Source: Minisyncoccota bacterium
GTDB lineage: Bacteria > Patescibacteriota > Minisyncoccia > Phycocordibacterales > Phycocordibacteraceae
NCBI GenBank assembly: GCA_035627595.1
Contig: DASPLK010000002.1
Location: forward strand, 85,864 to 149,863
Length of the DNA: 64,000 bases
Direction: 5' to 3'
This document shows, in pieces, positions 16,320-20,238 of this stretch. The position numbers and the translations under genes are program-made. The notes below the pieces were generated by a model, which saw only the letters and a list, made by a program, of their open reading frames with translations, did no database searches and had not been told where the DNA came from. Within the stretch, counting starts at the first letter, position 1; each line of letters opens with the position of its first letter.

Positions 16320-16391
16320 GGCCCTATCGTCTAGCGGTTAGGACGTCGCCCTCTCACGGCGAAAACCGGGGTTCGATTCCCCGTAGGGTCA
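16320..16391 (+). tRNA. tRNA-Glu (anticodon CUC)
   Basis: 72-nt cloverleaf folded by hand: 7-bp acceptor stem GGCCCTA/TAGGGTC, anticodon loop CTCTCAC, T-loop TTCGATT. Confidence 0.85.
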
Positions 16392-16455
16392 CAGCATTCC
16401 GGATTTAAACAATTAGCTTGGATTACTTGTAGTTTCTGTCTGTTACAGTGGCAGC

Positions 16456-16779
16456 ATGATTCTGCGCGCAATAGTATTTTCCTTACTCCTATCAGTAAGT
16501 CTGCCTTATACTGCCTCTGCCTGTTTACCACCACCTGGTTGGGAACCAAAGTATCTTAGCGGCTCCGACATATTCATACAGACAGGAGAGTCTTTCGGAA
16601 GTACTTATACTAATCTGCATGAGTACTTTCCTATGTACTCCAATGGGCCTACTTCGTGCGGAACAATTACTCACTACATAAGAAAGGATGCCGCTATTGG
16701 CGGCAGCCTTGTACTTGCACTAGGTATCATTGGAATGATCTTAATGTGGATCAAGCTTCGTAAGAAAAACCCACGTTAA
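16456..16779 (+). CDS. hypothetical secreted/anchored small protein (signal peptide, C-terminal TM plus basic tail), low GC
   Basis: 107 aa. GC is visibly lower than the flanks (AT-rich codons). Lies immediately 3' of tRNA-Glu. Confidence 0.5.
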   Translation: MILRAIVFSLLLSVSLPYTASACLPPPGWEPKYLSGSDIFIQTGESFGSTYTNLHEYFPMYSNGPTSCGTITHYIRKDAAIGGSLVLALGIIGMILMWIKLRKKNPR

Positions 16780-16792
16780 CGCAACGCTCTCC

Positions 16793-16856
16793 CTAGCAGG
16801 TACCATTTGCCGAGCTCCAATATAATCTGGTTCCAATTCGCACTAATGTGGGTCAC
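16793..16856 (+). repeat. copy 1 of a ~60-nt direct repeat (core AGCTCC...CTGgTTCCAATTCgCACTAAtGTGGGTCAC)
   Basis: Aligned by eye with copy 2 (about 80% identity). Begins 14 nt after the stop of ORF 16456-16779. Confidence 0.5.
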
Positions 16857-16995
16857 ATAGACTTTGTGCCTAAAATACAAGCTCCTACAAGGCGACCACA
16901 GTAGTCGCTAGAACACTGTTTGATTATTTCTCGCAAAGAGCGCATATTGCATCCCAGAACCAGGCCACTTTTGGCGCTCAACTCAGGAGGTTCTG

Positions 16996-17226
16996 ATGCC
17001 AGACATTCTGGACGACTGGAAAGACTTCCCCAAGGTCGGCTTGATCGTTAACGGGGAAAAGAAATTCTACCCTTTGTCCGAGGCTGTTCCTCTGTGGGAT
17101 AGCGGTTTCCTCAAGGTTGAAGACTCTCGCGAGCTTCTTCTTGAAGACTTCAGCATCCGCGAAATGACCGACGACGAGAACAGGGCGTTCCAACAACGGA
17201 CGGATGAATTTTCTGCCAGCAAGTGA
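16996..17226 (+). CDS. hypothetical acidic small protein (76 aa)
   Basis: ATG preceded by AGGAGG at -6; ORF lies between the two repeat copies. Confidence 0.5.
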   Translation: MPDILDDWKDFPKVGLIVNGEKKFYPLSEAVPLWDSGFLKVEDSRELLLEDFSIREMTDDENRAFQQRTDEFSASK

Positions 17227-17256
17227 GGTCTGGATGTAGCCCGATTTCGTCACGGG

Positions 17257-17286
17257 AGCCCCGCCACCATCTAGGTGCGCGGGGCT
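17257..17286 (+). terminator. hairpin after ORF 16996-17226
   Basis: AGCCCCGC-13 nt loop-GCGGGGCT followed by ACTTCATTATCT. Confidence 0.4.
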
Positions 17287-17314
17287 ACTTCATTATCTAG
17301 AGACCTTCCAAAGG

Positions 17315-17372
17315 CTAGCCAGGTACTAAGCTCCTGTACCAACTGATTCCAATTCTCACTAACGTGGGTCAC
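17315..17372 (+). repeat. copy 2 of the ~60-nt direct repeat
   Basis: CTAGCCAGGTAC...AGCTCC...CTGaTTCCAATTCtCACTAAcGTGGGTCAC; about 520 bp from copy 1. Confidence 0.5.
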
Positions 17373-17385
17373 CACATAATAGGAA

Positions 17386-17430
17386 ATCGCCCGGACCAAA
17401 AGGAACGGGCGATTCCTTTGTCCGGGCGAT
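17386..17430 (-). terminator. long imperfect hairpin (about 19 bp stem) directly after stop of minus-strand ORF 17430-17678
   Basis: ATCGCCCGGACCAAAAGGAA-cgggcg-ATTCCTTTGTCCGGGCGAT. Confidence 0.55.
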
Positions 17431-17678
17431 CAATCGGGAAGGTCGATGTCGAATGTAACACGGCCGATCTTCTTCTTGGCGTCGATGACCTGGACTTGCA
17501 CGCCCGTGCAGTCCGGATCTACGAACGGTTTGCCGTCTAAAGCGCCCACGTTCAGGCCGCACCTGCCAGATGCAAGGAGTAGTTCCTGCACAAGCGGCAC
17601 ATCCGTCTTCTTGAGCATGTTCTCCGGATCATCGCTAAGAGGCGATTTGCCCGGATCTTGCTCTGTCTTTCTGGGCAT
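17430..17678 (-). CDS. hypothetical small protein (83 aa)
   Basis: ATG at 17678 preceded by AAGGAGG at -6. The longer ORF listed in the track (to 17993) overlaps the truB 3' end and is probably over-extended. Confidence 0.5.
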   Translation of the reverse strand: MPRKTEQDPGKSPLSDDPENMLKKTDVPLVQELLLASGRCGLNVGALDGKPFVDPDCTGVQVQVIDAKKKIGRVTFDIDLPD

Positions 17679-17736
17679 AGCGTCCTCCTTTGCCAGCTCC
17701 TTAAGTAGGATAGCCCGGACGGCTGGGTTGGCAAAC

Positions 17737-18634: not shown

Positions 18635-18979
18635 TTAATGGTGCACCGGACGCTGCGTGCCTGAGGCGTTGAACGGGATGCGCATGGCCGAGTAGCCGAA
18701 ACGCGTACCGATTGTTTCCTCAAGCCGGAGCAATTCTTCCCAGAACTCTCGCTCGCTGGTGATGAGGGCGACGCGATCGAAGACGAGCTTGTCTTTAATC
18801 GACGACACCTTGATCTCGCCTCCGTAGTGGCGCTGGAACTCCAGGAGTTCCGCAGCGATTGAGATTTCAGGGCCGATATTCACCCATCCGAATATTGCGA
18901 TCGGAACCCCTTCAGGTCGGATCGTGGGGCAACGCGGATGGACGATGCACGCACGGCAGTCTTTTGACAACTCACACAT
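18635..18979 (-). CDS. hypothetical protein, possibly RbfA-like by position upstream of truB; start uncertain
   Basis: Weak similarity (…AMRIPF… vs RbfA …AMRLRIVPEL…) and the conserved rbfA-truB synteny. N-terminal CxxC...C...C stretch may be non-coding. Confidence 0.3.
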   Translation of the reverse strand: MCELSKDCRACIVHPRCPTIRPEGVPIAIFGWVNIGPEISIAAELLEFQRHYGGEIKVSSIKDKLVFDRVALITSEREFWEELLRLEETIGTRFGYSAMRIPFNASGTQRPVHH

Positions 18980-19073
18980 TTGATAGACCTCATCATTTGA
19001 TTGATGTTAGTCCACCATCACCGAACCCCGCTTATATATACCAGATAGCGTAGTGAAAAGAAACGGAAGCGAA

Positions 19074-19391
19074 TTAGTGCCGCGTTTCGTCCTCGAGGTC
19101 GAGTTCATACTGCGAGCCAACGGATGCCTCCGGCTTCTGCGCAATAGGACGCGTTTCAAAATACTTGCGTGCACGCTCTGCAGCTTGGCGCAGCCTACTA
19201 GCTCCAATGAACTGTTCCGGCGGGATATCGAGCGAAGATGCGTCCACAGAAACGCCGGTCTGCACGACCTGCTTTGTTTCAGGATTAAATGCAAAGGTGG
19301 CGCTCGACTGCCTGTCAATTACGACCTCAATTCGCGAAGGGTCGCCCTTGTATGGCTTGATTCGGTCAAAGGAAGAGGGGGCTGATTCCAT
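19074..19391 (-). CDS. hypothetical small protein
   Basis: The annotated GTG at 19421 lies inside a terminator hairpin, so the internal ATG at 19391 is used. No Shine-Dalgarno. Weak call. Confidence 0.25.
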   Translation of the reverse strand: MESAPSSFDRIKPYKGDPSRIEVVIDRQSSATFAFNPETKQVVQTGVSVDASSLDIPPEQFIGASRLRQAAERARKYFETRPIAQKPEASVGSQYELDLEDETRH

Positions 19392-19411
19392 AGAGAGAGT
19401 ATAACAAAATG

Positions 19412-19432
19412 AGGGTGGCACGGGGCCACCCT
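19412..19432 (-). terminator. rho-independent terminator after the two-gene operon 20162-19440
   Basis: AGGGTGGC-acggg-GCCACCCT; the minus strand then reads TTTTGTTAT. Confidence 0.55.
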
Positions 19433-19439
19433 CGAAGGT

Positions 19440-19847
19440 TCATAGAGAAATTGTTTCAGCGAGTCGCTGCTGATTGTGTGCGGCAAGTTGTTGGGTGCGA
19501 AGCGCGACAATCTCCTTCCGCTTCTCGCGCACGCTTCTAACGAATCGCTTTATGACTCGATAGTACGCCATCCCGATCAGATGGTACGCGCGCTTCTGTG
19601 GGAAGGGAACAGGCAACTTGTAAGCCATTTCTCGCACAAGCAGATACAAGGCTTCACCCTTGATGTCCCGCCGTTCCTCAATCCGAGCTCGCTCACGGAC
19701 TTCCTCGCAAAGTACGATCATGCGCCGTGCGATGTGTGCGGATGTTCCCGTAAGCGGCGTGAAGTCGACAAGCATCTCGCCTTTATCAGTTACCGCCGTC
19801 TCTTTGATCGCTTCTACGACCACTTCCAAACGAACTCGATATCCCAT
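19440..19847 (-). CDS. hypothetical protein (135 aa), second gene of a coupled pair
   Basis: ATG at 19847 overlaps the stop of the upstream gene (GAGGAGGAA TAG ATG), a strong coupling Shine-Dalgarno; followed by a terminator. Confidence 0.5.
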   Translation of the reverse strand: MGYRVRLEVVVEAIKETAVTDKGEMLVDFTPLTGTSAHIARRMIVLCEEVRERARIEERRDIKGEALYLLVREMAYKLPVPFPQKRAYHLIGMAYYRVIKRFVRSVREKRKEIVALRTQQLAAHNQQRLAETISL

Positions 19848-20162
19848 CTATTCCTCCTCTCGGATGAGCAGATGAGTATCGTCCTGCACCTCTTTGAGCG
19901 CGTATGTAACGGCGCGCTTGAATCGGGCTTCTGGAATCGCGTCAGGACAGGGAAGCGGCAGAGCTGCACCCCCTACGAACTTCCTGATGCGTGGTCGCCA
20001 GAACGGCTTGCGCGCAGGATCAAGGGCAAGCCCCTCATTCCTGCGTATGCGAGCCAGATCCGCCTGCACATAGGCACAGATGAGCGTTGCGGTGCTCTCA
20101 GCCTCGCGTTGCGCTCCCTGTACCAGGATTTCTCTACCAGCCTCCCCTTGAAGGAGGCTCAT
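19848..20162 (-). CDS. hypothetical protein (about 104 aa), first gene of a coupled pair
   Basis: ATG at 20162 with GGAG at -10; same strand as upstream gatB/yqeY. Confidence 0.45.
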   Translation of the reverse strand: MSLLQGEAGREILVQGAQREAESTATLICAYVQADLARIRRNEGLALDPARKPFWRPRIRKFVGGAALPLPCPDAIPEARFKRAVTYALKEVQDDTHLLIREEE

Positions 20163-20238
20163 GCGAACTATCTCCACTTATGCCTCCTCAGGTTTGACTG
20201 GAAGGAAAAATATACCTTAAAAATACTTACTCGTCAAA

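Follow-up and report, generated by a model that had tools for sequence, protein, structure and literature searches.

Two tandem integrase-less gene units downstream of tRNA-Glu in a Minisyncoccota genome and their probable link to a family of large serine recombinase elements

What kind of DNA separates the tRNA-Glu gene from truB in a bacterium of the candidate phyla radiation (CPR) in which two short open reading frames (ORFs) are each followed by a copy of the same direct repeat? This question is raised by the 64,000-nucleotide stretch of a Minisyncoccota genome that was analyzed here (positions 85,864 to 149,863 of contig DASPLK010000002.1, assembly GCA_035627595.1; hereinafter, the window), where an initial sequence-only reading likened the layout to gene cassettes with attC-like recombination sites or to duplicated att-like sites. 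The window corresponds to part of the 317-kb metagenome contig k141_293992 of a Paceibacterota bacterium (ENA ERZ27252484). We consider it probable that the locus contains two stacked, integrase-less units and that the repeat, denoted R, is the right-end arm of a family of elements that encode a large serine recombinase (LSR). Little is known about gene acquisition in the small genomes of the CPR (Patescibacteria), in which this locus represents a recurrent, precisely bounded site of gene gain.

A repeat-bounded insertion next to tRNA-Glu

The tRNA-Glu(CUC) gene (16320-16392, plus strand), identified by both ARAGORN and Rfam, is followed, as described in the sequence-only reading, by a low-G+C ORF on the same strand that encodes a 107-aa protein (ORF1, 16456-16779, from the ORF list); the G+C content is 0.44-0.48 over positions 16350-17100 compared to about 0.54-0.60 in the flanks. 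The first copy of the repeat (R1, 16784-16856, plus strand) starts 5 nt past the ORF1 stop codon, not 14 nt as originally counted. ORF1, a putative cargo gene, and R1, the predicted right end (attR-type, P-type half-site), make up the tRNA-proximal inserted unit A (16393-16856, 464 bp, plus strand), with the bounds set by the end of the tRNA and the end of R1. Unit B (16857-17372, 516 bp, plus strand), which was delineated by alignment to locus L085, encompasses a conserved left end (16857 to about 16925) with a motif in common with other units, a promoter and leader region, its cargo gene ORF2 (16996-17226, plus strand; delineated from the ORF list and homologs), a G+C-rich hairpin (17236-17288; GCCCCGC...GCGGGGC) that is kept in L085 and is a likely terminator, and the second copy of the repeat (R2, 17299-17372, plus strand), the predicted right end (attR) of both unit B and the entire insertion. 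The succession of an acidic 76-aa ORF with an AGGAGG Shine-Dalgarno sequence, a hairpin and a repeat had been read correctly at the outset.

The direct repeat spans 44 nt (16813-16856 and 17329-17372) with 82% identity and a spacing of 516 bp, and extends to about 75 nt, the full R1 and R2, when one indel is allowed; the initial estimates of about 80% identity and a distance of about 520 bp are close to these values, but the length of about 60 nt fell short. A profile of 60 outside copies of R recovers both copies (nhmmer E-values of 8.7e-13 for R1 and 2e-14 for R2), and the 30-nt core of R occurs exactly twice in the window, compared to 0 occurrences expected from 100 shuffles.

We fetched 80 loci around murF homologs from GTDB species-representative genomes. 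The gene order murF - tRNA-Glu(CUC) - truB - yqeY is kept in these relatives, with murF being the upstream neighbor in the window as well, and the interval between tRNA-Glu and truB ranges from about 55 bp to about 6 kb, in line with the earlier view of this tRNA gene as an integration hotspot. The distance between murF and truB varies from 157-170 bp (L053 and L018) to about 6 kb. These two relatives contain empty sites, with truB located about 55 bp past tRNA-Glu, which is the arrangement that the sequence-only reading proposed to look for. ORF1, ORF2 and the convergent ORF to the right of R2 (ORF3) are absent in all 80 loci.

The position of the insertion emerges from a comparison of the right-hand flanks, 500 nt each, of all R copies and all tRNA-Glu genes. 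For at least 8 pairs of genomes, the right flank of R in one is homologous, starting with the very first nucleotide, to the right flank of tRNA-Glu in the other, which lacks R, and on the left side of the matching flanks, one genome has R and the other has the tRNA. The right flanks of L133 and L112 are 96% identical over 138 nt; further pairs include L128 with L048 and L007, L173 with L169, L152 with L040, L143 with L144, and L110 and L105 with L048, L012, L031 and L033. In the window, the flank of R2 (CACATAATAGGAAATCGCCCGG…) matches the native tRNA-Glu flank of L006, and the window's own tRNA flank does not. Because of this match, we regard 16393-17372 as inserted DNA, and ORF3 and truB as host-side genes. 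At the level of sequence comparison, the combination of cargo and R is shown to be a precise insertion after the terminal GGTCAC of the tRNA, and segment 16393-17372 can be identified as 980 bp of DNA inserted at the 3' end of tRNA-Glu, consisting of two single-gene units in tandem, with the tRNA-side junction placed by comparison with the R-less genomes. The att-type interpretation of the repeats, one of the two originally offered, is thereby upheld.

By homology to L006 and by its inverted repeat, the segment adjoining R2 (17373-17430) is the native downstream flank of tRNA-Glu, outside the insertion, and appears to provide a bidirectional terminator shared with ORF3 (17430-17678, minus strand, 82 aa); the repeat search detects a terminator-like inverted repeat (I5) at 17386-17430. 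The convergent ORF with its AAGGAGG Shine-Dalgarno sequence and the terminator, which had been described as closing the region, are indeed present, but lie to the right of the R2 junction and thus outside the inserted DNA, and ORF3 is a host-side orphan that does not belong to the cassette array.

Unit B is found also in other array positions and contexts, including L085, L099 and L089. The alignment of L085 with the window (84% identity) begins at the left repeat and ends exactly where R2 does, and the DNA outside these bounds is unrelated. The contig of L099 starts in a genuine tRNA-Glu 3' end (…GGGGTTCGATTCCCCGTGGGATCACA), which is directly followed by the ORF2 leader, ORF2 and R; given that this tRNA end occupies the place of R1 in the window, the left repeat corresponds in position to the end of the tRNA. 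The ORF2 unit is thus tRNA-proximal in L099, second in the window, and located behind a different unit in L085, a distribution that would fit repeated site-specific insertion, with deletion relics as an alternative. The left end of unit B, about 65 nt, is common to L099, L085 and integrase-less units with other cargo in L148, L152, L128 and L134. The 30-nt core of R2 is identical in L085 and L134, and because R1 and R2 are only 82% alike, the two copies would come from different elements rather than from a local duplication.

The last bases of tRNA-Glu (GGTTCGATTCCCCGTAGGGTCAC, about 16370-16392) probably represent the chromosomal (B-type) attachment half, that is, attL of the array, and the end of R probably represents a P-type half-site. 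Both share GGGTCAC at the junction, and the motif GGTTCnAnT is found further in, at a distance from the junction of 28 nt (R) or 23 nt (tRNA). According to the structural model of serine integrases, attP half-sites exceed attB half-sites in length by 5 bp; the geometry of the sites seems to fit this offset, which is suggestive. The predicted junctions are CCCCGTAGGGTCAC joined to CACATAATAGGAAATCGCCC for the empty site, CTAACGTGGGTCAC joined to ATAGACTTTGTGCC for a circle of unit B, CTAATGTGGGTCAC joined to AGCATTCCGGATTT for a circle of unit A, and CTAACGTGGGTCAC joined to AGCATTCCGGATTT for a circle that contains both units.

Relation of the repeat to serine recombinase genes

Further copies of the repeat, for which the sequence-only reading had proposed a search, are numerous. 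The pattern AGYTC-N11-GRTTCCAAT-N12-GKGTCAC, drawn from six copies, matches 75 metagenome loci, and the nhmmer profile yields 79 R loci in all among those fetched; in 25 of these 79, a tRNA-Glu gene (CUC or UUC) lies on the same strand 0.4-5 kb to the left of R. At least two copies are present in 13 loci, with three in a row in L112, so that the layout of an ORF followed by a repeat, first noticed in the window, recurs in other genomes as arrays of one to three units. In L134, tRNA-Glu is followed by a promoter-like sequence, a 136-aa ORF, a hairpin and R, then by a second such unit with a 130-aa ORF, and then by a gene for a major facilitator superfamily transporter; the first R is of the window R2 type and the second one is of the type found on the left in L085. 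The cargo genes of the R units are mutually unrelated and encode small membrane proteins, CutA-like, nucleoside deoxyribosyltransferase-like and zinc-finger-like proteins, and others. The units possess a conserved leader, Shine-Dalgarno sequences and hairpin terminators, with consensus promoter-like hexamers in L134. A loose version of the pattern produced 8 matches in a viral collection, none of which was judged to be a true R; one of these (L097) lies, as read by eye, inside a phage large-terminase-like ORF.

Translation of the minus strand reveals a feature of the repeat that the sequence-only reading had missed, namely, that it corresponds to the 3' end of an integrase ORF. R1 (16856 to 16776) contains 26 codons of an integrase tail, VTHISANWNQIILELGKWYLLGRALR, and R2 (17372 to 17271) contains 33 such codons, VTHVSENWNQLVQELSTWLAFGRSLDNEVAPRT, each followed by a stop codon. 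The minus-strand consensus is VTQVGQNWNQLVxELNxWxxFGRxL, past which the frame runs on variably, to a total of 26-54 aa. This frame is open in 58 of the 60 distinct copies, compared to stops in 24 to all 60 copies in the other five frames, and shows a ratio of nonsynonymous to synonymous polymorphism (pN/pS) of 0.52; the ratio is 0.57 in the antisense in-register frame and about 1 to 1.4 in the remaining four. The third codon positions are the most variable, and residues beyond the search pattern are conserved, in particular, W18 (53 of 60 copies), F21 (40 of 60) and G22 (45 of 60). An exhaustive search of representative proteins with the R peptide retrieved only ten predicted proteins, all of 37-73 aa, and no long ones; the connection between R and the integrase was derived from the reading frames in the fetched loci.

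The integrase-bearing relatives of the units fall into two arrangements. In L106, L165, L136 and L150, an LSR gene (503-508 aa) adjoins tRNA-Glu on the minus strand, and R marks the opposite end of the element, at a distance of 4.1-5.2 kb. The LSRs of the tRNA-abutting loci contain Resolvase, Recombinase and Zn_ribbon_recom domains, and the four ORFs run through …K-L-V-T into 8-12 residues derived from the antisense tRNA. In L127, L160, L111 and L102, the LSR ORF instead continues in frame, via V-T, into the R peptide; that of L127 is a complete open frame of 594 codons, and the peptide of the window R2 aligns to residues 556-580 of this recombinase (E = 1e-5). The resolvase, recombinase and zinc-ribbon domains were confirmed in family members from both arrangements (L106, L165, L127 and L160), with the sizes of the R-tailed and other family LSRs being about 500-590 aa, and tblastn detected LSR homologs in 13 R loci. 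Distant LSRs are encoded near tRNA-Glu (at roughly 0-430 bp) in the relatives L019, L035, L021 and L077, and one is encoded elsewhere in L030.

As the two junctions have the GTG-ACC frame in common, excision must yield an attP form that encodes an integrase with the R peptide at its end. It follows that R is the displaced 3' end of the integrase gene, read on the opposite strand, and that attP is located inside the integrase gene, about 25-35 codons ahead of the stop. The 26-54-aa ORFs that are sometimes called on R should accordingly be annotated as integrase fragments, not as genes.

Under the mechanism we propose, LSR elements would integrate after the terminal GGTCAC of tRNA-Glu in Paceibacterota, with R serving as the right-end attachment arm. 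Integration would re-tail the integrase with a short peptide encoded by the antisense tRNA and would leave R, the segment that had encoded the tail until then, behind at the opposite end of the element (attR). The two units of the window, each of which contains one small ORF and no recombinase, and has ends of the att type found in the autonomous elements, would have been inserted by such an integrase acting in trans. If entry occurs at the tRNA, ORF2 with R2 would have come first, and ORF1 with R1 would have been added later, next to the tRNA.

Several individual loci show additional features. In L111 (R at oriented positions 2793-2867), two successive R-like segments are encoded in the recombinase frame (first …VVTPESLDWNTLEGMVLLLRKLFF…, next …VTQVGQNWNQLLTELEAWYSFGRALEAERV, followed by a stop), which looks as if an older junction was read through. 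In L132, genes for tRNA-Phe and tRNA-Ile (2116-2263) lie between the LSR gene and R, and this LSR-bearing element appears to carry the two tRNA genes as cargo. In L143 (R at oriented positions 1555-1628), the R frame extends into an ORF of 107 aa whose product has an OmdA/YdeI domain (Pfam E = 3e-14); the ORF2 unit in L087-L089 is likewise followed by an OmdA gene.

Competing explanations and points against the serine integrase origin

Among the alternatives to a serine integrase origin, the one that survives best, although we deem it improbable, is that R is an independent micro-gene of about 26-40 aa, such as a regulator or an antitoxin-like gene, that travels with the cassettes, the integrase likeness being secondary. 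The open frame and the low pN/pS value are compatible with such a gene, tail residues past codon 25 are common within some sub-families, and gene callers predicted the 37-73-aa proteins that contain R. However, no Shine-Dalgarno sequence or consistent promoter precedes the GTG of R, and this apparent start is an in-frame Val codon of the LSR ORFs in the four R-tailed loci. Furthermore, the frame past codon 25 ends at the first stop codon in the adjoining cargo or hairpin, the non-conserved end of the R2 frame extending into the hairpin of unit B, and the peptide matches no family in Pfam or NCBIfam.

It is slightly less plausible still that the units are remnants of tRNA islands formed by tyrosine integrases, with the repeats being decayed copies of the tRNA-Glu 3' end. 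R ends in GGGTCAC as the tRNA does and includes the T-loop-like GGTTCCAAT; the R type of the left copy in L085 and the second copy in L134 reads TTTCCCGTTAGGGTCACA, compared to TTCCCCGTAGGGTCACA in the tRNA; and exact copies of 15-24 nt of the tRNA 3' end are present downstream in some relatives. Nevertheless, the score of the R-tRNA alignment is matched by 11-13% of random windows, with only GGGTCAC(A) in common. Rfam yields nothing for R at the gathering threshold and nothing at E <= 10 on 16393-17736, the tRNA model included. R is protein-coding and common to serine-recombinase elements, and none of the R loci showed a tyrosine integrase.

The comparison with integron cassettes, in which the repeats would be attC-like hairpin sites used by an IntI tyrosine recombinase, is very hard to sustain: the periodicity of ORFs and repeats and the arrays of up to three units are in its favor, but the single-strand folding that the sequence-only reading proposed as a check produced no hairpin (both copies and both strands fold no better than shuffles, with z of +0.56, -1.62, +0.72 and -0.91), RNAalifold gives no consensus structure for six R copies from four genomes (-0.92 kcal/mol, 5 pairs), no intI or attI was detected in the window, the units possess a leader, Shine-Dalgarno sequence and terminator of their own, and R encodes the tail of a serine recombinase, not of an IntI-type tyrosine recombinase. 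Just as improbable is a local duplication of the promoter, untranslated region (UTR) or terminator of ORF2 without a role in mobility: ORF2 is bracketed by R copies in the window, L085 and L089, and a sigma-70-like match is present within R2, but this match is missing in R1 (for which reason R was rejected as a promoter), L086 and L098 have ORF2 homologs without R, dozens of loci have R behind unrelated genes, the R2 core is identical in other genomes in contrast to the divergence between R1 and R2, and in L099 the tRNA-Glu end takes the place of R1. The findings do not agree with the scenario that the sequence-only reading had set out against its own proposal, with a repeat present only twice, a duplicated promoter or UTR, and an invariant locus.

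Several observations weigh against the origin of the units from LSR elements. All the evidence on LSRs comes from other genomes, and the part of the window's genome that was covered is 64 kb of its contig. Within the window, tblastn with four LSRs detected no LSR gene and no recombinase domain was found among the genes scanned, as the sequence-only reading had stated for integrases; ten candidate integrase ORFs turned out to encode housekeeping proteins. Canonical serine integrases recombine attP with attB only and do not target attL or attR, so that the stacking of units at one tRNA is left unexplained by the textbook attP x attB reaction. The tRNA and R of the window share 7-8 identical junction bases, which by itself is not above chance. 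Unit A has a degenerate left end that is missing the conserved motif, and its gene ORF1 is an unsupported orphan. Among the 80 relatives, R was found only in L054, and exact look-ups of TruB, MurF and ORF2 for population polymorphism returned the same genome only.

More speculatively, the serine integrase origin of the units could be part of a wider process, an integron-like accretion of cassettes at the 3' end of tRNA-Glu in CPR bacteria that is based on a serine integrase and helper elements of 4-5 kb; we put this generalization forward tentatively, as the less likely side of an uneven balance. An integrase whose gene lies elsewhere would capture, stack and reshuffle single-gene units with their own promoter and terminator, a conserved left end of about 65 nt and the 75-nt R as the right end, and the exchange of the integrase tail could act as a built-in directionality switch. 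The 75-nt R can serve as a marker for insertions at tRNA-Glu in metagenomes and, if confirmed, as a handle for cataloging the flexible gene pool of Paceibacterota. Serine integrases are employed as genome-engineering tools; if confirmed, a tRNA-targeting serine integrase with attP in its own ORF would suggest, through the tail swap, a new control of directionality, and the integrase-less single-gene units in arrays would be of practical interest.

Known systems, cargo genes and the neighborhood of the locus

The closest counterparts of the proposed LSR-based units are the staphylococcal cassette chromosome (SCC) and pseudo-SCC elements, composite islands at rlmH (orfX) that involve the Ccr large serine recombinases. 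In both cases, a large serine recombinase inserts DNA at the 3' end of one conserved gene, elements accumulate one behind another, with direct repeats of the attachment sequence marking the bounds of each, and recombinase-less units are present in the arrays, which in SCC are thought to be moved by enzymes acting in trans. Unlike SCC, the target here is tRNA-Glu rather than a protein-coding gene, the hosts are CPR bacteria, the units are only 0.3-0.8 kb in size, with one gene each, the repeat is 75 nt long and represents the terminal part of the integrase ORF, and the system is known from sequence alone. The location of attP within the integrase ORF, combined with a tRNA target, is known from archaeal elements of the SSV1 type and from the Myxococcus phage Mx8 (intP to intX). 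As in these cases, integration splits or re-tails the integrase, with the displaced coding piece found at the other end of the element; in the family members, the integrase tails that run into either antisense tRNA or R place attP inside the ORF. However, the SSV1 and Mx8 enzymes are tyrosine recombinases, and the SSV1 int gene is split into large N- and C-terminal parts whereas here the last 25-35 or so codons are exchanged.

In cis-mobilizable elements (CIMEs), integrase-less units with att sites of the autonomous type also occur in tandem at a tRNA gene, but CIMEs depend on tyrosine integrases and 15-60 nt of the tRNA are duplicated, compared to about 7 nt in common here, where the repeat is element DNA. 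The resemblance to integrons consists in arrays of single-gene units, each with a recombination site, at one fixed chromosomal site; integron cassettes are generally promoterless, and the units described here seem to have their own expression signals, there is no attC hairpin or IntI/attI/Pc platform, and the recombinase is a serine enzyme. A serine integrase that acts on a tRNA gene and undergoes a tail swap, together with tiny single-gene units in CPR bacteria, would set the present case apart from all these systems, and full-text literature searches turned up no description of an R/LSR system at tRNA-Glu.

The two cargo genes of the window differ in their support. The N-terminus of the ORF1 product resembles a signal peptide, and a hydrophobic segment near the C-terminus is followed by a basic tail, so this looks like a small secreted or anchored protein. 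The codon score of ORF1 is 0.03 bits per codon in frame and -0.45 to -0.54 off frame, compared to 0.54±0.13 for host genes, and the G+C content at its third codon positions is 0.40; by these measures, ORF1 looks like a coding but foreign gene. In the public record, only the last 48 codons are called (16633-16779); the 107-aa frame has no Shine-Dalgarno sequence, and no homolog or family match was found for it. ORF2 has six homologs of 62-91% identity, all 76 aa long and located in differing gene neighborhoods; its predicted structure is a small alpha/beta fold with a mean confidence (pLDDT) of 82, for which there is no match to PDB or viral structures at E <= 0.001, and no sequence family was found. 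On the host side, the codon score of ORF3 is 0.45 bits per codon, similar to that of host genes, and its sole database match is itself, with no homologs.

In L086 and L098, ORF2 lies, without R, directly behind a gene for a 119-aa protein (634-993 in L086 and 684-1043 in L098). The cargo of the tRNA-Glu/R unit in L148 is a 121-aa ORF that, by eye, looks related to the 119-aa gene of L086 and shows a Pfam match to nucleoside 2-deoxyribosyltransferase (E = 0.0011) that is below the Pfam cutoff. Cargo genes seem to move between cassettes and settings outside them.

A second variable spot is located beside the first one. Between truB and yqeY, the window contains four small genes in a row (18635-20177, minus strand; 114, 115, 135 and 109 aa) with no family match and no tblastn match among the 80 relatives, and the truB-yqeY distance is variable among these relatives. 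In the independent Logan assembly of SRR7003767, contigs break inside tRNA-Glu, at window positions 16349-16363: L002 stops at about 16349 and L004 begins at about 16363, which may reflect several contexts in the sample that use one tRNA-Glu.

Many relatives contain, after tRNA-Glu, a strong hairpin and then an element of about 125-170 nt that is not present in the window. This element was found in L007 (two copies in tandem), L009, L012, L014, L028, L031, L033, L041, L042, L048, L058, L061, L072 and L080, as well as at the start of L086. At its start, the tRNA 3' end is repeated in inverted orientation (GTGACCYNA…CGGGGAATCGAAG), and at its end in direct orientation (TTCCCCGTNAGGTC); the element folds into a long closing stem that encloses internal hairpins, yields no match in Rfam and does not represent a tmRNA. 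Because it lies to the right of R in R-bearing genomes, it belongs to the host flank.

Finally, in about a third of the relatives, tRNA-Glu lies on the opposite strand relative to murF, at a variable distance (L007, L009, L015, L016, L028, L029, L034, L036, L039, L048, L050, L052, L054, L055, L058, L064 and L066), and in L054 and L174, the entire block of tRNA-Glu, cargo and R is inverted, which suggests recurrent inversion at the tRNA-Glu site.

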